This document shows positions 1 to 18,381 of a stretch of DNA of 24,000 nt, piece by piece. Location of the stretch: contig NZ_JBIBVE010000012.1 of the NCBI RefSeq assembly GCF_043080095.1, positions 73,367 through 97,366 of the forward strand, written 5' to 3'. Below the pieces are notes generated by a model. It ran no database searches, had not been told where the DNA came from, and saw only the letters and a program-made list of their open reading frames with translations. Position 1 is the first letter of the stretch. The number at the start of each line of letters is the position of its first letter. Both the position numbers and the translations under genes were made by a program. This stretch comes from Streptomyces sp. NPDC015127. GTDB taxonomy: Bacteria; Actinomycetota; Actinomycetes; Streptomycetales; Streptomycetaceae.

Positions 1-1020
1 CACATGGCCCGCGACACCCGGCGGGACGGCGAGATACGGCAGGTCGAGCTCGACCTGCCCCGCCGCGGCACCGGCCGCGGCGACGCCCTGGCCGTCTCCG
101 CCCGCGTCGCCCCGCTCGGCTCGCGCCTCGTCCTCCTGCTCGTCGAGGACCTCACCGAGGCCCGCCGCATAGAGGCGGTACGGCGCGACTTCGTCGCCAA
201 TGTCAGCCATGAGCTCAAGACCCCGGTCGGTGCGCTCTCCCTGCTCTCCGAGGCGGTCATGGACGCCTCGGACGACCCCGAGGCGGTCATGCGCTTCGCC
301 GGCCGCATGCAGATCGAGGCGACCCGGCTGACCAACCTCGTGCAGGAGCTCATCGACCTCTCCCGCGTCCAGAACGACGACCCGCTGGAGGACTCCGAGC
401 CCGTGCGCGTGGACGAGCTGGTCGCCGAGGCCATCGACCGCTCCCGGCACACCGCGTCCACCAAGCAGATCACCATGGCCTCGAATGTAGGGGCGCCCGC
501 AGGGCTCGAGCAGGGTGGCGGTGGGCGACGGGCGGGGACCGCCGACCTCAGCATCTGGGGCAACCGCGGCCAGCTCGCCGCCGCCCTCGGCAACCTCGTC
601 GAGAACGCGGTCAACTACTCACCGGCCCGTACACGCGTCGGCATCTCCGCCCGCCGGGTCGGCGCACCCGGGGGCGACCTCATCGAGATCGCCGTCACCG
701 ACCAGGGCATCGGTATCTCCGAGAAGGACCGTGAGCGGATCTTCGAGCGGTTCTACCGCGTCGACCCCGCCCGCTCCCGTGCCACCGGAGGCACCGGCCT
801 CGGACTGGCCATCGTCAAGCACGTGGCCGCCTCGCACGGCGGGGAGGTCACGGTGTGGAGCTCCGAGGGACAGGGCTCCACGTTCACCCTGCGGCTGCCC
901 GAGGCGGGCGCCGCGCGGGACCGCTCCACCACCGGCCCGGATCGCGTCGACGAGGACGACGACCGGCCTTACGACACCGATCCGAATAGCGAAATTCCTG
1001 CCCCGGAGGTCCTTCCGTGA
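1..1020 (+). CDS. phoR: Sensor histidine kinase, PhoR/SenX3-like; the 5' end is cut by the window edge
   Basis: The frame is open from base 1. It carries an H-box 'FVANVSHELKTPV', an N-box 'LVENAVNYSP', G1 'DQGIGI' and G2 'GGTGLGLAIVKHV'. Its TGA overlaps the GTG of the downstream OmpR-type regulator (GTGA at 1017-1020). The position upstream of carD/ispDF/cysS matches the Streptomyces phoRP locus as I recall it. Confidence 0.8.
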   Translation, partial: HMARDTRRDGEIRQVELDLPRRGTGRGDALAVSARVAPLGSRLVLLLVEDLTEARRIEAVRRDFVANVSHELKTPVGALSLLSEAVMDASDDPEAVMRFAGRMQIEATRLTNLVQELIDLSRVQNDDPLEDSEPVRVDELVAEAIDRSRHTASTKQITMASNVGAPAGLEQGGGGRRAGTADLSIWGNRGQLAAALGNLVENAVNYSPARTRVGISARRVGAPGGDLIEIAVTDQGIGISEKDRERIFERFYRVDPARSRATGGTGLGLAIVKHVAASHGGEVTVWSSEGQGSTFTLRLPEAGAARDRSTTGPDRVDEDDDRPYDTDPNSEIPAPEVLP

Positions 1021-1697
1021 CCCGAGTGCTCGTCGTCGAGGATGAGGAATCCTTCAGCGACGCCCTGTCCTACATGCTCCGCAAGGAGGGCTTCGAGGTC
1101 GCCGTGGCGACCACGGGTCCCGAGGGACTCGACGAGTTCGAGCGCAACGGCGCCGACCTCGTCCTCCTCGACCTGATGCTGCCCGGCCTGCCCGGTACCG
1201 AGGTCTGCCGCCAGCTGCGCGGCCGCTCGAACGTCCCGGTCATCATGGTGACCGCCAAGGACAGCGAGATCGACAAGGTCGTCGGGCTGGAAATAGGAGC
1301 CGACGACTACGTCACCAAGCCCTTCTCCTCGCGGGAGCTGGTTGCCCGCATCCGCGCGGTGCTGCGCCGCCGCGGTGAGCCGGAGGAGGTCACGCCCGCC
1401 GCCCTGGAGGCCGGCCCGGTCCGGATGGATGTGGACCGCCACGTCGTCACCGTCTCCGGCGGCAAGGTCGACCTCCCGCTCAAGGAGTTCGACCTGCTGG
1501 AGATGCTGCTGCGCAACGCGGGCCGGGTACTGACCCGGATGCAGCTCATCGACCGGGTCTGGGGCGCGGACTACGTCGGCGACACCAAGACGCTCGACGT
1601 CCACGTCAAGCGCCTGCGCGCGAAGATCGAGCCGGACCCGGGCGCCCCGCGCTACCTGGTGACGGTCCGCGGCCTGGGCTACAAGTTCGAGCCGTAG
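1017..1697 (+). CDS. phoP: OmpR-family response regulator PhoP (RegX3-like)
   Basis: Receiver domain ('VLVVEDEESF', 'DLVLLDLMLPG', 'TAKD') followed by a winged-helix output domain ('LTRMQLIDRVWG...TLDVHVKRLRAKIE...VRGLGYKF'). The GTG start is preceded by GGAGG (1005-1009) and is translationally coupled to phoR. Confidence 0.85.
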   Translation: MTRVLVVEDEESFSDALSYMLRKEGFEVAVATTGPEGLDEFERNGADLVLLDLMLPGLPGTEVCRQLRGRSNVPVIMVTAKDSEIDKVVGLEIGADDYVTKPFSSRELVARIRAVLRRRGEPEEVTPAALEAGPVRMDVDRHVVTVSGGKVDLPLKEFDLLEMLLRNAGRVLTRMQLIDRVWGADYVGDTKTLDVHVKRLRAKIEPDPGAPRYLVTVRGLGYKFEP

Positions 1698-5282: not shown

Positions 5283-6683
5283 GTGACTATTCGCCTGTAC
5301 GACACCAGCGCCCGGCAGATCCGTGACTTCACCCCCCTCGTGCCGGGTTGTGTCTCGATCTACCTGTGTGGCGCCACCGTGCAGGCCGCACCGCACATCG
5401 GGCACATCAGGTCCGGCCTCAACTTCGACATCCTGCGCCGCTGGTTCGAGTACCGCGGCTACGACGTGACGTTCGTCCGCAACGTCACGGACATCGACGA
5501 CAAGATCATCAAGAAGTCGGCCGAGCAGAACCGGCCGTGGTGGTCCATCGGCTACGAGAACGAGCGCGCGTTCAACGACGGCTACGAGGCACTCGGCTGC
5601 CTCCCGCCCACCTACGAACCGCGCGCCACCGGCCACGTCACCGAGATGGTCGAGATGATGCGCGGCCTCATCGAGCGCGGGCACGCGTACGAGGCCGACG
5701 GCAGCGTCTACTTCGACGTGCGCTCCTTCCCCGACTACCTGGCGCTGTCCAACCAGGACATCGACGACCTGCGCCAGCCCGCCGAGGAAGGCATCACCGG
5801 CAAGCGCGACCCGCGCGACTTCGCCATGTGGAAGGCGACCAAGCCGGGCGAGCCCGACTGGGAGACGCCGTGGGGACGCGGCCGCCCCGGCTGGCACCTG
5901 GAGTGCTCGGCCATGGCCCACAAGTACCTGGGCTCCGCGTTCGACATCCACGGCGGCGGCCTCGACCTGATCTTCCCGCACCACGAGAACGAGATCGCCC
6001 AGGCCAAGGCGTACGGAGACGACTTCGCCTCCTACTGGGTGCACAACGCCTGGGTCACCATGAGCGGCGAGAAGATGTCCAAGTCGCTCGGCAACTCGGT
6101 GCTCGTCAGCGAGATGGTCAAGAAGTGGCGCCCGATCGTCCTGCGCTACTACCTCGGCACCCCGCACTACCGCTCGATGATCGAGTACAGCGAGGAGGCG
6201 CTGCGCGAGGCCGAGTCCGCGTTCGCCCGCATCGAGGGCTTCGTGCAGCGCGTCGTGGAGAAGGCGGGGGGCGTCGTCGCGCCCGCCGACGACGTGCCGC
6301 TCGCGTTCGCCGAGGCCATGGACGACGACCTCGGCGTGCCGCAGGCGCTCGCGATCGTCCACACCACCGTCCGCCAGGGCAATTCCGCCCTGGCCGCCGA
6401 CGACAAGGAAGCCGCCGTGGCCCGCCTCGCCGAGGTCCGTGCCATGCTCGGTGTCCTCGGCCTCGACCCGCTCGACGAGCGCTGGGCGGGCGAGAGCGAC
6501 CGCGGCGACGACCTCCACGGCGTGGTCGACTCCCTGGTGCGCCTGGTGCTCGAACAGCGCGAGGCCGCCCGGTCCCGCAAGGACTGGGCCACCGCCGACG
6601 CCATCCGCGACCAGCTCGGCCAGTCCGGGCTCGTCATCGAGGACAGTCCCGACGGCCCCCGGTGGACCCTCGGAGCCCGCTGA
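5283..6683 (+). CDS. cysS: Cysteine--tRNA ligase
   Basis: Class I aaRS signatures 'HIGH' ('APHIGHIRS') and 'KMSKS' ('GEKMSKSLGN'), plus the Zn/Cys-binding 'GWHLECSAM'. The GTG at 5283 gives the usual 'MTIRLYDT...' N-terminus. The TTG at 5223 adds 20 residues that do not look conserved. Confidence 0.9.
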   Translation: MTIRLYDTSARQIRDFTPLVPGCVSIYLCGATVQAAPHIGHIRSGLNFDILRRWFEYRGYDVTFVRNVTDIDDKIIKKSAEQNRPWWSIGYENERAFNDGYEALGCLPPTYEPRATGHVTEMVEMMRGLIERGHAYEADGSVYFDVRSFPDYLALSNQDIDDLRQPAEEGITGKRDPRDFAMWKATKPGEPDWETPWGRGRPGWHLECSAMAHKYLGSAFDIHGGGLDLIFPHHENEIAQAKAYGDDFASYWVHNAWVTMSGEKMSKSLGNSVLVSEMVKKWRPIVLRYYLGTPHYRSMIEYSEEALREAESAFARIEGFVQRVVEKAGGVVAPADDVPLAFAEAMDDDLGVPQALAIVHTTVRQGNSALAADDKEAAVARLAEVRAMLGVLGLDPLDERWAGESDRGDDLHGVVDSLVRLVLEQREAARSRKDWATADAIRDQLGQSGLVIEDSPDGPRWTLGAR

Positions 6684-8042: not shown

Positions 8043-9641
8043 ATGAGTGTGGACACCAGAACGCCCCGGTCCGGGTTCGATGATCAGCCTGCACTGAGCA
8101 TGGTCAAGGTGGACTGCGATCCCGCGCAGGTCATCGTCAACCACGCCAGCTTCCGGGTGCAGCTCGCCCAGAGCCCGCGCCCCGCACGTGCCCTGGCGGA
8201 CACCTCACGGCTCGCCTCCGTCGGCGCGGGCACCGCGCGGCGCAGGGCGCCCGTCGTGTGGAGCGGCAGGTCCGCGCCCGGGGACTCCGGCGCCACCGGG
8301 CTCCTCCAGGCCGTGCGCAACTCCACCCTGGAGCACGACCCCTACAACACCGGCGCCACCCAGGTCATGCCGCGCATCGACCTCGGCGACGACACGGTGC
8401 AGCACCCTGCCGTCACCGACGCGCGACCTCTGCTGCCGCCCATGCGCCAGGCCGTCGGCGCCTACGACTCGTACGACTCCTACAGCCACGGGCAGGACGG
8501 CCCGGACAGCCGCGAGGGGCAGGACGGCCCGGACACGTACGGCGGCTACGGCCAGGACACCTACGACCCCGAGCCGTACGCCGAGATCGCGCCCACCGCC
8601 GCCGGTGCGCCCGCCGGCCACCGGCCCACAGGCGACCCCACCCGGCACGCCTACTACCCCGACCGCCGCCTGAACCTCGGCGTGGTGCTCCTGCCGCTGC
8701 GCCTGCTCCTCGGGCTGATCTCCGTGTACGCCGGCATGGGCAAACTCTGCGACCCCGTCTACTTCGACGGCGGCGACCGCGGGTCCATGGTCATGTGGCT
8801 GAACTCGCTCCACCCCTGGGCGCTGGCCGCTCCGCTGCGCGACTTCGCACTCGCGCACCCCGTCGGCGCCGGACTCACCGTCGCCTTCCTCCAGGTCGTC
8901 GTCGGCGTCCTCACCGTCCTCGGCCTGTGGCAGCGCGTCGCCGCCGTCATCGGCGCCCTGCTGTCCGCGGCACTGATCCTCACCGTGACCTGGCGGACCG
9001 TCCCCGTCTACGACGCGCCCGACTTCATCTTCCTCGCCGCCTGGTCCCCGCTGATCATCGCGGGCGCCCCCGTCTACTCCATCGACGGCCGCCTCGCCGG
9101 CGAGGCCTGGCGCACCCTCGGCCCGCGCTCCGAGATCTGGGACCTGCGCCGCCGTGTCCTGCGCCGCGGCGGCCTCGTCGCCGCCGTCGTCGTGGGCCTC
9201 ACCATGCTCATCGGCTCCATGCTCGGCGGCGCCGTCCGCTCCACCGAGGTCGTCACCGTGCCCGGCCCCGACCAGAACCCCAGCAACCACCTGCCCGGCG
9301 CCCCGCTCCCGCAGGAACCCGGCACGGAACGCAGCTCCTCCGGCACGCGCACGGACAAGCCCTCCCCGTCCGCCAGCCGCTCCGGCACCCCCACCTCGAA
9401 GACCTCGGCACCCGCCGAGGACACCGTCCGCGAGACCGGCCAGGTCGGCGGCACCCCCAGCGAGACCCAGGGCACCGGCCAGCAGGCCCCCACGGGCTCG
9501 CAGCCCGCACCGCCGCCGACCACCAGCTCCGGGCCCACGTCCAGCGGCGGCACCGGCTCCGGAGGCACCTCGGGCGGCTCCGGCGGGGGCTCCGGCGGCT
9601 CCTCCGAGGGCGGCGGCGTCATCGGCGGCCTGCTGGGCTGA
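8043..9641 (+). CDS. DoxX-like integral membrane protein with a long low-complexity N-terminus and a Pro/Ser/Thr/Gly-rich C-terminal tail
   Basis: The central region has about 4-5 hydrophobic helices ('LNLGVVLLPLRLLLGLISVYAGMGKL', 'GLTVAFLQVVVGVLTVLGLW', 'VIGALLSAALILTV', 'FIFLAAWSPLIIAG', 'LVAAVVVGLTMLIGSMLGG') that resemble DoxX/DUF-type membrane proteins. GC3 is high throughout. The start codon is uncertain; the ATG at 8100 is an alternative. Confidence 0.6.
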   Translation: MSVDTRTPRSGFDDQPALSMVKVDCDPAQVIVNHASFRVQLAQSPRPARALADTSRLASVGAGTARRRAPVVWSGRSAPGDSGATGLLQAVRNSTLEHDPYNTGATQVMPRIDLGDDTVQHPAVTDARPLLPPMRQAVGAYDSYDSYSHGQDGPDSREGQDGPDTYGGYGQDTYDPEPYAEIAPTAAGAPAGHRPTGDPTRHAYYPDRRLNLGVVLLPLRLLLGLISVYAGMGKLCDPVYFDGGDRGSMVMWLNSLHPWALAAPLRDFALAHPVGAGLTVAFLQVVVGVLTVLGLWQRVAAVIGALLSAALILTVTWRTVPVYDAPDFIFLAAWSPLIIAGAPVYSIDGRLAGEAWRTLGPRSEIWDLRRRVLRRGGLVAAVVVGLTMLIGSMLGGAVRSTEVVTVPGPDQNPSNHLPGAPLPQEPGTERSSSGTRTDKPSPSASRSGTPTSKTSAPAEDTVRETGQVGGTPSETQGTGQQAPTGSQPAPPPTTSSGPTSSGGTGSGGTSGGSGGGSGGSSEGGGVIGGLLG

Positions 9642-12354: not shown

Positions 12355-12408
12355 GGTGAATGGCTCCCTTCACCGGCAGGAACGTGCCGGACGATCCGTT
12401 GTAGAGGG

Positions 12409-12439
12409 AGTGGTCCAGTCCACCCCGTGGGTGGACTGG
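12409..12439. promoter_or_regulatory. DasR-box-like (dre-like) operator / palindrome in the msiK leader
   Basis: AGTGGTCCAGTCCACC (12409-12424) matches the dre consensus A(G/C)TGGTCTAGACCA(G/C)T at about 13 of 16 positions. It overlaps an 11-bp perfect inverted repeat, CCAGTCCACCC (12415-12425) / GGGTGGACTGG (12429-12439). Confidence 0.4.
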
Positions 12440-12599: not shown

Positions 12600-12880
12600 C
12601 GGATTGTGAGCTTGCCGCTCCTTGCGCGCATTTGCGCCCTCACGAGCAGCGCTTCCTGCTTCGACGCCCATCGCCGACTGCGCACAGCCCTCAGGGGCCA
12701 CACCAGACCGGTCTTACGCGGGCTCCACAGGCATGACGGCCGACGGCCCGTCGGTCCGTACCTCTCTCCAGCACTCCCTACGCCGTCAGATGGACCTCCG
12801 GCAGCTCCGACGCCCTGATCACGGACGGCATCCCTCTGCCCGGCGGCAGCGCCATCGCCGCCAGCCAGTACAGCCGCATC
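12600..12880 (-). ncRNA. Candidate TnpB omega-RNA (reRNA) region overlapping the tnpB 3' end and right end
   Basis: This rests on family knowledge: omega-RNAs are encoded at the 3' end of tnpB plus the RE. The sequence shows an imperfect hairpin ACGGCCGACGG/CCGTCGGTCCGT (12736-12759) and further GC stems at 12620-12665. The boundaries are guesses. Confidence 0.25.
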
Positions 12881-14175
12881 CCCTCGTCCCGGAGATTCAC
12901 CGCCGCGTTCACGTCCCGGTCGTGCACCACACCGCACTCCTGACAGGTCCACTCCCGCGCCGACACATCGAGGCGAGGGCCCTTCGCGTGGCATGAAGAA
13001 CAACGACGCGTGGACGGGAAGAACCGGTCCACGATCACCAGCGTCCGCCCGTACCACGCGCACTTGTACCGCAGCTGCCGCAGCAGCTCACCCCATGCCG
13101 CATCGGTGATCGACTGGTTCAGTTTCGCCTTCCGTCGCCGTCCCTTGCCCGGCGCTGAGCGCAGGAGATTGGCAACGGGAAGGTCCTCCACCACGAGCAC
13201 TTGGTTCTCGCGCACGAGGCGAGTCGTCAACTGATCCAGCGCGTCCCTGCGGGCATCACTGATGAGCGCGTACAACCTGGCGATACGCTCACGGGCCTTC
13301 CCCCTGTTCTTCGACCCCTTCTCCTTGCGGTGCAGCTCCCGCTGCCGCCGCGCCAGCTCATCCGCGTACTTCCGCAACAGCCTGGGATGCTCCAGCTTCG
13401 AACCGTCGTCCATCGTGACCAACGTGGCCAGACCAAGATCCAGACCGACCGCCTTCGGCTCGCATCCACCCGGCAGAAACACGGCCGGCAGCGGTTCTAT
13501 CCGCTCTTCCACCAGCACCGACAGGAAATAGCGGCCGCCCCGATCACGGGTCACCGTCAGCTTCACCGGCACCTGACCACCGGGCAAGGGACGCGACCAC
13601 CGCACATCCAACGGCTCGCCCTGCTTTGCCAGCGTCACCGACCCCGTCCCCGGCCGCTCCGGATCCTCCACCCACCGGAACCCGGTCCGCACATACGTCG
13701 CCGAATCCCGCGACCGACGCTTCCTCTTCGGCTTCGGGTACCTCGCAGCACCCCGGAAGAACCGCGAAAACGCCCCCTCCAGATGCCGCAACGCCTGCTG
13801 CAGCACTGTCGACGACACCTCCCGCAACCACGACGTCCCCTCCGCCCGACGCCACCCCGTCAATGCCCGACACGTCTCCGCGAACCCGAGCGACACCCGA
13901 TGCTGCTCCCAGGCACGCGCCCGTAGGGCAAGCCCTTCGTTGTAGACCCAGCGGCAGGCGCCGAAGGTCCGCTCGAGCTGCTCGGCCTGGGACGCGGTCG
14001 GATAGAAGCGGAACCGGTAGACACGCTGCTGGGTGCCGGCCTCTTCGGTCCGGCTCTTCAGAGGCGTCGCGACACGGGCGTGATGCTTGCGCCGGTCGGC
14101 GATGCCGAGGTCCTCCCGCTTGACGCGCTTGGCTTCCTCGCCCACGACGCGCACAGGCTGCTCGGATGACCCCAT
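12778..14175 (-). CDS. tnpB: TnpB (OrfB) RNA-guided DNA endonuclease, IS200/IS605-IS607 superfamily; no adjacent tnpA
   Basis: N-terminal 'YRFRFYPTASQAEQL' motif. RuvC-I 'GLDLGL', RuvC-II 'VLVVEDL', RuvC-III 'HDRDVNAAVN' and the Zn finger 'CSSC...CQEC' are all intact. The ATG at 14175 is preceded by AGGGGGG; a GTG at 14178 is one codon upstream. Confidence 0.9.
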   Translation of the reverse strand: MGSSEQPVRVVGEEAKRVKREDLGIADRRKHHARVATPLKSRTEEAGTQQRVYRFRFYPTASQAEQLERTFGACRWVYNEGLALRARAWEQHRVSLGFAETCRALTGWRRAEGTSWLREVSSTVLQQALRHLEGAFSRFFRGAARYPKPKRKRRSRDSATYVRTGFRWVEDPERPGTGSVTLAKQGEPLDVRWSRPLPGGQVPVKLTVTRDRGGRYFLSVLVEERIEPLPAVFLPGGCEPKAVGLDLGLATLVTMDDGSKLEHPRLLRKYADELARRQRELHRKEKGSKNRGKARERIARLYALISDARRDALDQLTTRLVRENQVLVVEDLPVANLLRSAPGKGRRRKAKLNQSITDAAWGELLRQLRYKCAWYGRTLVIVDRFFPSTRRCSSCHAKGPRLDVSAREWTCQECGVVHDRDVNAAVNLRDEGMRLYWLAAMALPPGRGMPSVIRASELPEVHLTA

Positions 14176-14330
14176 CACACCCCCCTGCCGTCCGATAGCC
14201 GGAACAGCACTCCTGTCCGTTCAACGAACGTGTGGGCGGGTGGTTACGGTGGGCGTGAAGTTCTTCGCGGGCGGTTCGTGGTGCTGTGTAGAGTGGGGGA
14301 GCCTCGCGCGCGTGAGTGACCGCGAGCAAT

Positions 14331-14406
14331 GCCGCCTTAGCTCAGTTGGTAGAGCCACTGCCTTGTAATCAGTAGGTCGCCGGTTCGATTCCGGCAGGCG
14401 GCTCCA
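14331..14406 (+). tRNA. tRNA-Thr (anticodon UGU), CCA encoded
   Basis: The cloverleaf folds by hand. Acceptor GCCGCCT/AGGCGGC, D-arm GCTC-AGTTGGTA-GAGC, anticodon arm ACTGC-CTTGTAA-TCAGT (one C:T mismatch at 31:39), T-arm GCCGG-TTCGATT-CCGGC, then discriminator T and CCA. Confidence 0.9.
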
Positions 14407-14414
14407 CGAAACAC

Positions 14415-14456
14415 GTGTCCCGGACCTCTCAGGTCCGGGACACTTGCGTTTTGCGG
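14415..14456 (+). terminator. Rho-independent terminator of tRNA-Thr
   Basis: 12-bp perfect stem: GTGTCCCGGACC (14415-14426) and GGTCCGGGACAC (14432-14443), followed by TTGCGTTTTG. Confidence 0.7.
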
Positions 14457-14494: not shown

Positions 14495-15754
14495 ATGGGG
14501 CGTCGTTCGGGTGGATTCATCGGAACCTGGGCGGAGGCACAACGGCAGCAGCAGCGGCAGCGCGAAGCGCAGCACTCGGCGGTTGTCCGACAGCAGAGGG
14601 AGCAGGAGCGACAGCAGCGGGCGTACGCGCGGGACATGGCGCGGATGCACCGGGAGCAGCAGGCCGCTTATCGGCGGCAGCGGGAGCAGGATGTTCTGCG
14701 GCGTACGCAGGAGCTGGATACACGGGTGGCTGCCTTGGAAGGGCTGCTCGTCGCTGGGTGTGAGGCGCCTCGGTTCCGTGTTGCGACGTTGCGGCGGACG
14801 GAGGAGGTGGAGGCCTTCGCGCCGGGGCCTTTGGCGCAGCCGGTGAGGATGCCGGATCCGGCCCATTACCAGTCGCGGGGCGGTTGGACGGCTGCTGGGC
14901 GGGCGCAGGCGGAGCAGGAGGCGCGGGCGCGTTTCGAGCGGGACTGGTATGCGGCGCAGGCGGCCGAGGAGAGGCGTCGGCAGGATCTGGCGGCGTATCG
15001 GCAGCAGTACGACGACTGGGCGCGTGCGCGGCTGGCGGAGATCCGGGAGCACAACGCCGGAATCGAGGGTATGGCCCGTGCTTTGCGTGCGAGTGAGCCG
15101 GAGACGGTGGTGGAGTACTTCTCGGCTGCTCTGTATGCGTCGACGGCTTGGCCGGAGGGGTTTCCGCGGCAGGTGTCGGCGGCGTACGACCGGGCGGCGC
15201 GGCAACTCGTGCTCGATTGGGAGCTGCCCGGCTACGAGGTTGTTCCTGAGGCGAAGGGCGTGCGTTATCTGGTCGGGACGGACCAGGAGAAGGAGATCGC
15301 CCGGCCGGCGGCCCAGCGGAGGGCACTGTACCGGGACGTTCTTGCGCAGAGTGTGTTGCTGGCGTTGCGGGAGTTGTTTGCGGCGGATGAATGCGAAGTG
15401 CTGCGTTCTGTGGCGCTGAATGGCTTCGTGGATGACGTGGATCCGGCGACGGGCCGGCCGTCGCGGGTGGTTCTGGCGTCGGTGATGGTGGATCGCGCGG
15501 AGTTCGAAGCGGTGCATTTGGAGCTGGTCGGTGCGGTGGAGTGTCTGACCGGGGGGCTTCGGGGGCAGTTGTCGGCGCGTCCTGATCAGCGGGTCGCGGT
15601 GCGGCCGGGCCGCGTTCCGGAGCAGGTGGGTTCGGGGGGGGGGGGGGGGGTTCCCGCGGGAGCGGCGGTGAACCGGACCTGCTGGCGATGGATCCGATCG
15701 AGTTCGAGGGCTTGGTGGCGGAGCTGTTCCGCGCGCGTGGGTTTCAGGCGATGA
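14495..15754 (+). CDS. N-terminal fragment of a split restriction-endonuclease-like protein (Q/R-rich coiled coil plus an uncharacterised domain); the frame is disrupted at the poly(G) tract
   Basis: ATG at 14495 with a GGGAGGGG RBS. 'AEAQRQQQRQREAQ...REQERQQRAYARD' is coiled-coil-like. Coding GC3 continues up to the G17 run at 15634-15650. After the run this frame reads Arg/Trp/Cys-rich nonsense until the stop at 15754. Confidence 0.6.
   Translation: MGRRSGGFIGTWAEAQRQQQRQREAQHSAVVRQQREQERQQRAYARDMARMHREQQAAYRRQREQDVLRRTQELDTRVAALEGLLVAGCEAPRFRVATLRRTEEVEAFAPGPLAQPVRMPDPAHYQSRGGWTAAGRAQAEQEARARFERDWYAAQAAEERRRQDLAAYRQQYDDWARARLAEIREHNAGIEGMARALRASEPETVVEYFSAALYASTAWPEGFPRQVSAAYDRAARQLVLDWELPGYEVVPEAKGVRYLVGTDQEKEIARPAAQRRALYRDVLAQSVLLALRELFAADECEVLRSVALNGFVDDVDPATGRPSRVVLASVMVDRAEFEAVHLELVGAVECLTGGLRGQLSARPDQRVAVRPGRVPEQVGSGGGGGVPAGAAVNRTCWRWIRSSSRAWWRSCSARVGFRR
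15634..15650 (+). repeat. Homopolymeric G17 tract (encodes a poly-Gly linker and is the frameshift site)
   Basis: Direct count gives 17 consecutive G at 15634-15650. I saw no other run longer than about 7 nt in this window. Confidence 0.95.
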
Positions 15755-16593
15755 CAACGCAGCGGTCGAACGACGGTGGGGTGGATGTGGATGCGGTCGA
15801 TCCTGATCCGATCAGCGGCGGGAAGATCGTTGTGCAGGTGAAGCGCTACCGTGGCACGGTTCCGGTGGCTGCGGTGCGGGAGTTGTTCGGCACTGTTCAG
15901 GCGACGGGTGCCAACAAGGGTGTTCTGGTGACTACGTCGGGTTTCGGTCCGGGTGCGTACACCTTTGCCAATGGCAAGCCTTTGACGCTCGTGTCGGGGA
16001 CGGAACTGGTTGATCTGCTGCACCGGCACGGGCTGCGTGGGCGTCTCGGTGACGGGGAGGCGGTCTCGGTTCCTGCGTCGGCTGCGGACGAGGTTCCAGG
16101 CAGTGATCACGACTACAGCGTGCTCGGGATGTCGTGGTCGGGCTCGGTGGCTCTGGATGTCTGTGCGTTGGTGTGCGCGGGGAACAGGGTGCTCGGCGAC
16201 GAGTTCTTCGTTTTCTTCAACAACGAGGCGACGCCGGACGGCTCTGTGCGCATGTTGGGTTCGTTTGCCGGGGATCGGACGGCGATTCGGGTGGCGTTCG
16301 ATGCGTTGCCGGAGGGGGCGGATCGACTGGTGCTGGTGGCGGCGGTCGATCCGGAGGTGAATCCGGATGCTGATCTCTCGACATTCGCGGATGCGTCGAT
16401 CCGGCTCCGGGATGCGTCGGGCGTGGAGCTGGACAGGTTGGTCGTGTCGGACGGTCGGGACAGTGAGACGGCGCTGGTCCTGGGATCGTTCCGGCGGCGT
16501 TCCAGCGGAGACTGGGAGTTCGTGCTGGGCGGCAAGGGCTACCGGGGTGGTTTGGAGGAGCTGGTGGGGGATTTCGGGATCGCGGTGGAGTAA
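15688..16593 (+). CDS. C-terminal fragment: Mrr_cat-type restriction endonuclease domain fused to a TerD-like domain
   Basis: Mrr_cat: 'PIEFEGLVAELFRARGF...NDGGVDVDAV...KIVVQVKRYRGTVPVAAVRELFG...GANKGVLVTTSGF' (a D...(Q)VK PD-(D/E)xK core). TerD-like: 'ALDVCALV...DEFFVFFNNEATPDGSVRM...LVLVAAV...ETALVLGSFRRRSSGDWEFVLGGKGYRGGLEELVGDFGI'. This frame is open back to the G-tract (SRGSGGEPDLLAMDP...). Confidence 0.7.
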   Translation: MDPIEFEGLVAELFRARGFQAMTTQRSNDGGVDVDAVDPDPISGGKIVVQVKRYRGTVPVAAVRELFGTVQATGANKGVLVTTSGFGPGAYTFANGKPLTLVSGTELVDLLHRHGLRGRLGDGEAVSVPASAADEVPGSDHDYSVLGMSWSGSVALDVCALVCAGNRVLGDEFFVFFNNEATPDGSVRMLGSFAGDRTAIRVAFDALPEGADRLVLVAAVDPEVNPDADLSTFADASIRLRDASGVELDRLVVSDGRDSETALVLGSFRRRSSGDWEFVLGGKGYRGGLEELVGDFGIAVE

Positions 16594-16600
16594 GCCGACT

Positions 16601-16636
16601 GCCCGGGCCGACGTGCTGTCGGCCCGGGCGCTTTTT
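16601..16636 (+). terminator. Rho-independent terminator after the Mrr_cat-TerD gene
   Basis: 12-bp perfect stem: GCCCGGGCCGAC (16601-16612) and GTCGGCCCGGGC (16618-16629), followed by GCTTTTT. Confidence 0.75.
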
Positions 16637-16639
16637 CAT

Positions 16640-16990
16640 GTCCCGGACACCTGGGGGTGCGGGCCAGGACGCCGTGGCCCCGGGTGGGGGTGTGCGGGCC
16701 GAGGGTGTGAGGGTCGAGGCTGAGTGCGGCGGCGATCTTCGGGGCGAGGTCGGACGCGACCCAGTCCCATTCGTCGTCGCCGCCGACCTCCGCGTGGCAC
16801 CGGGTCTCGAAGGGCAGCGGGTCGCCGATGGTCAGGTCGCGTCGTCGACCGCGGCGACCGCGTCCGCGAAGCCGGTCGGCTGCGGGTCGGTGAGCTCCAT
16901 CGCGTCGAGTACGGCTGTCTGGTCGCCGGTGGGGAGCGCCGGCCAGTGCAGTCGGCATGCGGTGATGGGGGCGGGGGTGTCGGTGGGCAT
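16640..16990 (-). pseudogene. Hypothetical-protein gene remnant, frameshifted at about 16835-16850 and apparently 3'-truncated
   Basis: The ATG at 16990 overlaps the stop of the upstream oxidoreductase (TGATG). The first 52 codons ('MPTDTPAPITACRLHWPALPTGDQ...AVDDAT*') have high GC3. A second frame then shows equally strong GC3 ('DLTIGDPLPFETRCHAEVGGDDEWDWVASDLAPKIAAAL...'). That frame loses its coding character near 16650 and runs through the neighbouring terminator without a native-looking end. Confidence 0.45.
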
Positions 16991-18381
16991 CAGTGGCGGC
17001 CCGAGATCTTGTCCGCGAGTCTGGCCAGGCGGTCCGTCGTGGGCGTGTGGGTGGTGGCTTCGCGGCGGTCCGCGGTGCGGTAGGCCGCGTAGAGGGTGTG
17101 GACGCCGAGCCAGCGCAGCGGTTCCGGTTCCCAGTTGCGGACTTTGTGGTTCACCCAGGGCAGGGCGGTGAGGTCGGTGGGGCCGGACTGGCCGGCGTCC
17201 TGCTGGATCAGGTCGCGGAGGGTGCGGGCGGCGAGGTTGGCGGTGGCGACGCCGGAGCCGACGTAGCCGCCTGCCCAGCCGAGGCCGGTGGAGCGGTCGA
17301 GGGTGACGGTGGCGCACCAGTCGCGGGGGACGCCGAGGACGCCGGACCAGGCGTGGGCGATGCCGGTGCCGGCGAGGCGGGGGAAGAAGCGGACGAGGAT
17401 GTCGCGCAGGGCGTCGATGGTGGTGGGCTGGGTGCGTCCGTCATTGTCGGTCCTGGAGCCGTAGCGGTAGGGGACGCCGCGGCCGCCGATGGCGATGCGG
17501 TCGTCGGCGGTGCGCTGGGCGTACATGTAGGCGTGCGCCATGTCGCCGAGGGTTTCGCGTCCGGACCAGCCGATGTCGGACCAGACGTGTTCGGGCAGCG
17601 GGTCCGTGACGATCATGGAGGAGTTCATGGGGAGCCAGGTGCGGTGGCGGCCCTTGAGGGAGGCGGTGAAGCCTTCGGTGCAGCGCAGGATGTAGGGGGC
17701 GCGGACGGTGCCGTACGGGGTGACGGCGTGCTTGGGCCTGATCTCGGTGACCGGGGTGGACTCGTGGATGGTGACGCCGAGCGCTTCGACGGCGGCGGCG
17801 AGGCCCTTGACGAGTTTGACCGGGTGGAGGCGGGCGCCGTGCGGGGTCCAGGTGGAGGCGACGGCTCCGGTGACGCGGATGCGTTCGGCGGTCTCGCGGG
17901 CGCCGAGCAGGAGGCGGTCCTTCTCGCCGAAGGCGATGTCGACGGCGTGGAAGGCTTTGAGGCGGGCGAGTTGGGCGGGGGTGTGGGCGATTTCGAGGAC
18001 GCCGCCCTTGTGGATGTCGGCGTCGATGGATTCCTCGCCGGCGACGCGGATGACTTCGTCGACGGTGTCGTTCATCGCCTGCTGGAGGCGGACGGCGGCG
18101 TCGTGGCCGTGCAGGCGGGCGTAGCGGTCGCGTCCGGCGATGCCGTTGTAGAGCCAGCCGCCGTTGCGTCCGGAGGCGCCGTATCCGCAGAACGTGGCTT
18201 CGAGGACGGTGATGTTGAGGAAGGGGACGGCCTTCTTGAGGTAGTACGCGGTCCACAGGCCGGTGTATCCGCCGCCGACGATGCAGACGTCGGCGGTGGT
18301 GTCGCCGGGCAGGGGTTCGCGGGGGGCGGGTGTGCCGTCCTGTGCGTACCAGAACGAAATGCCGCCGTTGACGGTGCTCAT
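16990..18381 (-). CDS. FAD-dependent oxidoreductase (DAO family, gamma-glutamylputrescine-oxidase-like)
   Basis: The ATG at 18381 has a GGGAAG RBS. Dinucleotide fold 'DVCIVGGGYTGLWTAYYL', 'ASGRNGG' and a C-terminal 'GGYVGSGVATANLAAR'. The 796-aa track ORF is an upstream over-extension. Confidence 0.8.
   Translation of the reverse strand: MSTVNGGISFWYAQDGTPAPREPLPGDTTADVCIVGGGYTGLWTAYYLKKAVPFLNITVLEATFCGYGASGRNGGWLYNGIAGRDRYARLHGHDAAVRLQQAMNDTVDEVIRVAGEESIDADIHKGGVLEIAHTPAQLARLKAFHAVDIAFGEKDRLLLGARETAERIRVTGAVASTWTPHGARLHPVKLVKGLAAAVEALGVTIHESTPVTEIRPKHAVTPYGTVRAPYILRCTEGFTASLKGRHRTWLPMNSSMIVTDPLPEHVWSDIGWSGRETLGDMAHAYMYAQRTADDRIAIGGRGVPYRYGSRTDNDGRTQPTTIDALRDILVRFFPRLAGTGIAHAWSGVLGVPRDWCATVTLDRSTGLGWAGGYVGSGVATANLAARTLRDLIQQDAGQSGPTDLTALPWVNHKVRNWEPEPLRWLGVHTLYAAYRTADRREATTHTPTTDRLARLADKISGRH

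Follow-up and report, generated by a model that had tools for sequence, protein, structure and literature searches.

What is a run of 17 guanines doing inside a nuclease gene, and does it break that gene, switch it, or only seem to? The question is raised by a window of 24,000 nucleotides (nt) from Streptomyces sp. NPDC015127 (contig NZ_JBIBVE010000012.1, positions 73,367 to 97,366), by which is meant the whole stretch of DNA analysed; coordinates are those of the window unless another contig is named. An earlier note on this DNA (the original prediction), made by a model from the letters and a list of open reading frames (ORFs), had proposed a slipped-strand contingency switch and had named a homopolymer miscall and a dead pseudogene as alternatives. 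The explanation favoured here, with moderate confidence, is that the run is a real, strain-specific poly-G expansion in the disordered linker of a conserved Type IV-like nuclease, where it would act as a chance ON/OFF switch by slippage. The parts of the gene are given below, with residues numbered on the protein obtained when its two frames are joined and frames named by the position of their codon starts modulo 3.

14495 to 15633, plus strand: N-terminal part of the nuclease gene, coding for residues 1-380, which are modelled as a long helical hairpin plus an alpha/beta domain; on Logan contig L082 the called gene (2..1189) begins with the ATG at 14495.
15634 to 15650, plus strand: the poly-G tract, 17 G (G17) in the deposited assembly and 18 G (G18) in the Logan assembly, replacing the ancestral GGGGTGGTG (Gly-Val-Val) and coding for the poly-Gly part of the inter-domain linker.
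15651 to 15754, plus strand: out-of-frame tail of the G17 allele, VPAGAAVNRTCWRWIRSSSRAWWRSCSARVGFRR and then a stop, translated only when the tract length is 3n+2.
15682 to 16020, plus strand: Mrr_cat PD-(D/E)xK nuclease domain (residues 397-509; mod-1 frame; Pfam PF04471, E=5.3e-33).
16141 to 16575, plus strand: C-terminal TerD domain (residues 550-694; Pfam PF02342, E=1.3e-22); the stop codon of the gene ends at 16593.

Positions 15634-15650 hold exactly 17 G, the count given in the original prediction. The next-longest homopolymer anywhere in the window, which is 70.8% G+C, measures 6 nt, and the run had rightly been called exceptional. All eight G10 matches in the window lie within the tract; dinucleotide-preserving shuffles give an expectation of 0.46, and none reached eight. 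Across 995 kb of related Streptomyces and Kitasatospora DNA, eight runs of at least 9 nt were encountered; three of them (C16, G17 and C22) are assembly junk in a single scaffold, L063, and the longest of the remaining runs is 10 nt.

The consequences for the reading frame were also borne out. Upstream of the tract the gene is read in the mod-2 frame as ...PEQVGSGGGGGVPAGAAVNRT... (also given as ...EQVGSGGGGGVPAGAAVNRT...), which runs to a stop at 15752-15754, where the upstream ORF had been said to end. The mod-1 frame, one base back, had been described as open immediately after the tract with Mrr_cat and TerD in it; it is open from before the tract and reads ...SRGSGGEPDLLAMDPIEFEG... on to 16593. 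The codon position of low G+C content moves from mod 0 before the tract to mod 2 after it, showing that the coding signal itself switches frame there. When the tract length was varied in silico, 12, 15, 18, 21 or 24 G gave a single ORF of 697-701 amino acids (aa), 3n+1 G gave products of 390-393 aa and 3n+2 G gave products of 418-421 aa. The statement that one added or two removed G would restore a single ORF is therefore accurate, as 18 or 15 G (and also 21) yield an ORF of about 699 aa. All of the factual statements of the original prediction hold. Two features of phase-variable genes are accordingly present, namely a hypermutable simple repeat inside the coding region (G17/G18 within the ORF) and, in silico, a repeat number that toggles between full-length and truncated products.

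How long is the tract? On this point two assemblies disagree. Over 16.1 kb the Logan assembly of run SRR35639636 shows no difference from the window other than its G18, which is in frame. Its contig L082 agrees with the window at each of the 7781 nt before the tract and the 32 nt after it, and differs in having 18 G; the gene called on L082 crosses the tract without a change of frame and stays open as far as the end of the contig. A second contig, L083, starts at window position 15653 and matches at 8348 of 8348 nt. Since L082 ends at window position 15682, the two share exactly 30 nt, a length equal to k-1 for a Logan graph built with k=31, the value presumed here. This overlap indicates that the assembly graph branches at the 3' edge of the tract and that the reads are heterogeneous there. 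The deposited NPDC genomes, including that of the window, come from libraries amplified by polymerase chain reaction (PCR), whose NovaSeq reads (2x150) were assembled by SPAdes with the --careful option (PMC10760148). In Bifidobacterium breve, Illumina sequencing was found to misread bases past G tracts, and synthetic G11/C11 templates lost a base at about 3-5% and gained one at 0.5-1%, loss being about five times commoner (PMC9187656). Because loss exceeds gain, the joint occurrence of 17 and 18 is better explained by a true 18 with -1 products than by a true 17, and G18, which is in frame, is probably the main allele. The one-base frameshift, and with it the split of the gene in the deposited assembly, does not exceed the error with which such a length is called and is not reliable. 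The homopolymer miscall that had been named as an alternative is thus partly upheld: it would apply to the length and the frameshift, which did not prove robust, but not to the tract itself, which is real in two independent assemblies and is crossed from flank to flank by k-mers.

A two-colour Illumina poly-G artefact was also considered as the source of the whole run and was rejected. The tract is internal to a contig of 319,742 nt, with no N and no paired poly-C; it lies on one strand only, its flanks are collinear with those of orthologues, and the k-mer assembly L082 also contains it and reads across it. A real artefact of this kind is seen for contrast at 13287-13447 of L063 (Streptomyces sp. 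NPDC058257), where C16, G17 and C22 surround a 10-N gap in a 240-kb scaffold. This junk is typical of two-colour chemistry, and such artefacts do survive in NPDC assemblies.

Several points weigh against the favoured explanation. The graph break falls two bases beyond the tract (TT|CCC), a position that a simple mixture of 17 and 18 explains incompletely and that may reflect Illumina miscalls after the G run. Run SRR35639636 was assigned to NPDC015127 by inference from its 100% identity over 16.1 kb, not from metadata. The difference in length was seen between assemblies and may be biological, technical or both. The G17 form could be the majority allele, since SPAdes with mismatch correction chose it. 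Finally, no second isolate of the species was found in a homologue search with the 396-aa Logan product, the best match being 83% identical.

Some of these observations would also suit a pure miscall of length, in which a stable, in-frame G18 leaves the gene intact, the heterogeneity comes from library PCR and Illumina chemistry, and there is no meaningful switching. The independent assembly does give G18, the libraries were PCR-amplified and run on a two-colour NovaSeq, G tracts yield Illumina artefacts and stutter even with synthetic templates, poly-G/poly-C junk surrounds a gap in another NPDC assembly, and the nuclease gene is under purifying selection, as described below. This explanation nevertheless appears unlikely. 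Shorter G tracts vary in single-colony cultures of other Actinobacteria and in pglX of Streptomyces coelicolor, and a stable run of 18 nt would be exceptional because NucS, the mismatch repair enzyme discussed below, does not repair insertions and deletions (indels).

Is the gene still under selection? Between the window and its closest relative, V4I23 (L081), whose protein is 91% identical, the ratio of nonsynonymous to synonymous substitution rates (dN/dS) is 0.139 for the part before the tract and 0.106 for the part after it. The values for the intact pair L081/L001 are equivalent, at 0.111 and 0.096. No other stop or frameshift occurs in the 699 codons of the nuclease gene. The gene is not decaying and is under purifying selection; neither the relaxed selection nor the extra lesions of a frameshifted pseudogene are seen, and the dead pseudogene named in the original prediction finds no support in a downstream dN/dS of 0.11 and the absence of a second lesion.

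A recent pseudogene, with G17 fixed, the nuclease dead and decay just begun, was also considered. The deposited assembly has G17, and exact look-ups in the protein collection did not find the N-terminal products of 419 aa and 422 aa or the C-terminal product of 301 aa, as might be expected if the deposited record carried a pseudogene call. The family is sometimes inactivated, and a neighbouring 202-aa gene carries a deletion in the window strain. We consider this proposal very unlikely all the same, as the second assembly has G18, the 699 codons and the downstream dN/dS speak against it, and a run of 17 nt would revert readily, so that OFF would not be a stable end state. The inactivations in question affect three of the 71 Streptomyces and Kitasatospora loci that carry the full-length gene, and indicate that it is occasionally lost in the clade: L015 has a one-base T insertion (about 6453), L048 a frameshift (about 6275-6309) and L077 a deletion of about residues 97-594 (6001-6569). 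Recurrent inactivation of the family at homopolymers was considered and rejected, because the frameshifts in L015 and L048 are ordinary events affecting single bases, L077 has lost a large segment, and all three changes lie away from homopolymers.

What does the gene encode? A single ORF of about 700 aa is the norm in the family, for which 1897 homologues were found at E<=1e-10; among the 120 matches listed, every named one is from Streptomyces. On sequence comparison, a protein composed of the N-terminal domain, Mrr_cat and TerD is conserved in Streptomyces and Kitasatospora. The Mrr_cat domain of the joined protein possesses the D...QxK residues of the Mrr family, D427, D431, Q448 and K450 (Q448-x-K450), all invariant across 43 sequences. 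The TerD domain matches PDB entries 3ibz and 2kxt at E about 1e-15 by sequence, and 3ibz at 2e-11 by fold. The PADLOC profile for Type IV methyl-directed restriction (mREase_IV, PDLC03663) spans residues 13-512 with E=1.6e-53; no Pfam domain was found in residues 1-390, and no NCBIfam model matched. An AlphaFold2 model built on 43 sequences has a mean predicted local distance difference test score (pLDDT) of 79.5. In the model, the helical hairpin and the alpha/beta domain (residues 8-378, pLDDT about 90) are followed by Mrr_cat and then by TerD, and pLDDT drops to less than 50 over residues 380-392, which separate well-folded domains. Foldseek returned AspBHI (E=7e-7) and MspJI (E=4e-6) over about 375-390 columns, with low template modelling scores (TM-scores; 0.14-0.26) and a root-mean-square deviation of about 20 A.

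The N-terminal part is probably a reader or targeting module. According to one proposal, TerD binds specialised nucleotide derivatives (PMC7159879). From its sequence, the protein is best regarded as a Type IV-like nuclease that is possibly ligand-regulated, and Type IV activity is accordingly a prediction. The gene has the solitary character of a Type IV nuclease, as no methyltransferase adjoins it (the neighbours being msiK, TnpB, tRNA-Thr, DAO and an APH-type gene), and the label "potentially toxic nuclease" used in the original prediction seems fair for such an enzyme. A short second paralogue is encountered in Kitasatospora (L073 5722-6933; also L072 and L074-L076), with a leader of about 50 aa, Mrr_cat and TerD and without the large N-terminal domain. 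These stand-alone paralogues show that the nuclease-TerD module can exist alone.

Where did the tract come from? Comparison with orthologues places its origin in one strain. The sequence at this site in about 60 orthologous loci is GGx TCx GGG GTG GTG TCG CAC GGN GGN... (G-S-G-V-V-S-H-G-G-G), with no G-run longer than 6. The seven closest orthologues have TCx GGG GTG GTG TCG CAC (GGG ATG GTC in L015), and in an alignment with them the window has eight additional bases, G16T standing where they have GGGGTGGTG. With G18 the difference is nine nt, which replaces Gly-Val-Val by six Gly in frame. Among 213 homologous proteins that were fetched (at least 500 aa, nearly all of them homologues of the nuclease) no long G-run was found; only one has Gly5 at the site, and its codons are mixed (GGC GGG GGC GGG GGA). 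Metagenome scans with the left flank plus G9, and with G9 plus the right flank, gave no matches. A comparison of tract length in orthologous loci had been proposed as a check on the contingency switch, and its outcome does not favour one, as the tract is absent from every orthologue examined. The retention of the repeat in relatives that would mark a phase-variable gene is thus not seen in the roughly 60 loci or the 213 proteins.

The codons of the tract point to slippage. Only 12% of Gly codons in the housekeeping genes of the window are GGG, and since GGG is a minority codon, a pure GGG run indicates slippage and not codon choice or selection on the protein. In the family at large, the linker is of low complexity and differs in length from one member to another (L034, L035 and L040 are examples); this variation, together with the disorder modelled at residues 380-392, implies that in-frame expansions should be tolerated.

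On these grounds a strain-specific expansion followed by slippage can be set out as follows. The ancestral GGGGTGGTG would have undergone T-to-G changes and then slippage, giving a gain of 9 nt for G18 or 8 nt for G17, in what the model presents as a disordered linker joining the N-terminal domain to the Mrr_cat-TerD part. Tract lengths of 3n would give the full enzyme of about 699 aa with a longer Gly linker, and other lengths would give an N-terminal fragment of 390-421 aa with a short junk tail and no nuclease. A tract of 17-18 G would gain or lose bases at high frequency, and cultures would then be mixtures of ON and OFF cells. Actinobacteria are without MutS and MutL. Mismatch repair by NucS leaves indels uncorrected: deletion of nucS in S. 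ambofaciens barely changed the indel rate, and reviews agree for mycobacteria and Corynebacterium. Because indels escape repair, the tract should slip often. The G tract of S. coelicolor pglX is reported to switch at 1e-2 to 1e-4 (Sumby and Smith 2003, as cited in PMC4365076), and 17-18 G should slip at least at that rate. A high rate of slippage in vivo is what we infer from these comparisons, and the tract should be a chance mutational switch irrespective of selection.

Was the switch selected? A selected contingency locus would be one in which random ON/OFF expression of a Type IV-like nuclease is advantageous, for example in tolerating newly acquired DNA methylation or in varying phage defence, in parallel with pglX. 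The gene appears to encode a defence-type nuclease, as judged from the mREase_IV profile and the fold similarity to AspBHI and MspJI; the genus already offers a precedent; ON alleles should work, given an insertion-tolerant linker; and the pure GGG run is contrary to codon preference. We nevertheless hold selection to be quite unlikely. The tract is absent from the orthologous loci and the homologues, the sole other Gly5 at the site having mixed codons; a single strain is known to carry it; and a neutral runaway of slippage in a tolerant linker accounts for the same facts. In the slipped-strand contingency switch of the original prediction, the real tract, the dependence of the frame on its length and the expectation of slippage, given that NucS ignores indels, all stand; no evidence was found that selection has shaped the tract as an evolved contingency locus.

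A variant of this idea, to which we assign little probability, holds that a selected phase switch toggles between a fused and a split enzyme. OFF would then mean a free N-terminal reader domain, perhaps accompanied by Mrr_cat-TerD through re-initiation at the ATG at 15688, like the paralogues of Kitasatospora L073. No ribosome-binding site is evident before this ATG.

The meaning of OFF would change in another way if full-length protein were made from G17 by recoding, either through slippage of RNA polymerase or through -1 ribosomal slippage of tRNA-Gly on GGG GGG, so that the frameshift means low expression instead of none. The run is longer than the RNA-DNA hybrid, so that a slipped transcript stays fully paired, the shift required from mod 2 to mod 1 is a -1 shift, and GGG is a minority codon. 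Recoding is nonetheless highly improbable: neither a stimulatory structure nor conservation was found, the cases of productive transcriptional slippage on record mostly involve A or T runs, and a tract unique to one strain suggests incidental leakiness and not a programmed mechanism.

How does a chance, slippage-driven switch in this gene compare with known systems? Homopolymer-driven mutational switches in restriction or defence genes are a known class, and any adaptive role of the present one is hypothetical. The closest likeness is pglX of Pgl (BREX type 2) in S. coelicolor, where, as described in the citing source, an intragenic G homopolymer in the same genus, by growing or shrinking, puts a defence protein that targets DNA and may be toxic in or out of frame. 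By the same account, Pgl variation was shown experimentally and with a phenotype, whereas for the tract of the window two assemblies disagree; pglX encodes a methyltransferase in a four-gene system, whereas the window gene encodes what appears to be a single-protein Type IV-like nuclease with a tract in one strain.

The sortase-dependent pilus genes of B. breve UCC2003 are similar in that an intragenic G10-G12 in an actinobacterium splits one gene into two annotated ORFs and the reference length disagrees (PMC9187656). The reference has G11, yet a culture from a single colony was 37% G11 and 60% G12, and the same study likewise cautions about tract lengths in databases and about Illumina artefacts (PMC9187656). 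It differs from the present case in that its tract is conserved across Bifidobacterium species and strains, was studied by error-corrected sequencing and affects a pilin, whereas the tract described here is strain-specific, is known from assemblies and affects a nuclease.

Phasevarions, too, offer a parallel. In Haemophilus, Neisseria and Helicobacter, simple repeats in restriction-modification genes toggle expression by slipped-strand mispairing. The window gene resembles these phasevarions in having a homopolymer or short repeat within a gene of a restriction system. Unlike it, phasevarion repeats recur across strains, are enriched genome-wide in small-genome, host-adapted bacteria and mostly affect mod or hsdS; Streptomyces genomes almost never carry such runs (in the 995 kb sampled), and the window gene is of predicted Type IV. 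The protein itself is like the Type IV enzymes Mrr, MspJI and AspBHI in its Mrr_cat domain, its mREase_IV profile, its fold matches and the lack of an adjacent methyltransferase. It is unlike them in its N-terminal coiled-coil hairpin and C-terminal TerD, as well as in the low TM-scores noted above, and its dependence on modification is a prediction from sequence.

If the tract does switch in vivo, it would provide a natural, random ON/OFF control of a putative modification-dependent nuclease in Streptomyces, a genus whose genetic manipulation is hindered in practice by the restriction of methylated DNA. Pgl is, to our knowledge, the only system known to phase-vary in Streptomyces. A selected switch, were it true, would be the second defence switch driven by a simple sequence repeat known in the genus, and by far the longest tract. 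Demonstration of true switching with a restriction phenotype, by read-level or single-spore data, would raise the significance of the tract, which is modest at present. There is also a lesson of method, since a one-base difference in a long G run between a SPAdes and a k-mer assembly is enough to make a conserved gene look whole in one and divided in the other. Because so small a difference reverses the reading of the gene, frameshift calls at long homopolymers in short-read assemblies should not be taken as biology without the reads.

The nuclease gene lies in core chromosome, its surroundings including a two-component system, ispD, ispF, cysS, rlmB and msiK. Further neighbours are a DAO oxidoreductase gene and a gene of APH type, for which Logan gene calling on L083 gives APH_6_hur. 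The other features near the gene, among them transfer RNA (tRNA), hairpins and two coding sequences, are as follows.

12358 to 12416, minus strand: msiK RNA leader (Rfam RF01747, 61 bits), upstream of the gene for an ATP-binding cassette (ABC) transporter ATPase.
12778 to 14178, minus strand: intact IS605-family TnpB of 465 aa with HTH_OrfB, OrfB_IS605 and Cas12f1-like TNB domains, without TnpA, between msiK and tRNA-Thr.
14331 to 14406, plus strand: tRNA-Thr(TGT), directly 5' of the nuclease gene.
14415 to 14443: hairpin of 13 bp, downstream of tRNA-Thr(TGT).
16600 to 16630, plus strand: terminator-like hairpin (14-bp stem and T-run) directly 3' of the nuclease gene and before the convergent downstream gene, kept also in L081.
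About 16640 to 17000, minus strand: gene convergent with the nuclease gene, 202 aa in V4I23 (L081 10133-10741), its start overlapping the DAO stop.

The msiK leader in front of the ABC-transporter ATPase gene confirms this gene as msiK. The order msiK, [TnpB], nuclease, DAO, with both flanking genes present, is shared by 17 related loci and V4I23, indicating that the nuclease gene has been inherited vertically within the clade. An S. coelicolor counterpart was sought by gene number and discarded, as SCO4241, which adjoins msiK, is listed as a proteinase and SCO4242 onward form a contractile-injection cluster. The convergent 202-aa gene has in the window an internal deletion of 253 nt (junction 16838/16839), which is out of frame and makes it a pseudogene in this strain. 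It was considered as an immunity partner of the nuclease and was not supported in that role, as nothing matched in PADLOC or NCBIfam and its start overlaps the DAO stop.

The end of the tRNA-Thr and its hairpin is only about 50 nt 5' of the start codon of the nuclease gene, leaving very little space for a promoter; the gene may be transcribed by read-through from the tRNA promoter, or its leader may be very short. The G+C content at third codon positions is 0.78-0.79 in the nuclease gene and 0.84 in TnpB, against 0.95 in msiK and 0.93 in DAO among the flanking core genes, despite synteny across many species. Copies of TnpB are found at the equivalent syntenic position in seven related species, with 67-84% aa identity, the copy in L003 being partial. 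This pattern suggests vertical retention and not recent transposition, and TnpB may be a domesticated copy. At the same position L081 has a gene of 356 aa that carries the HTH domain only.

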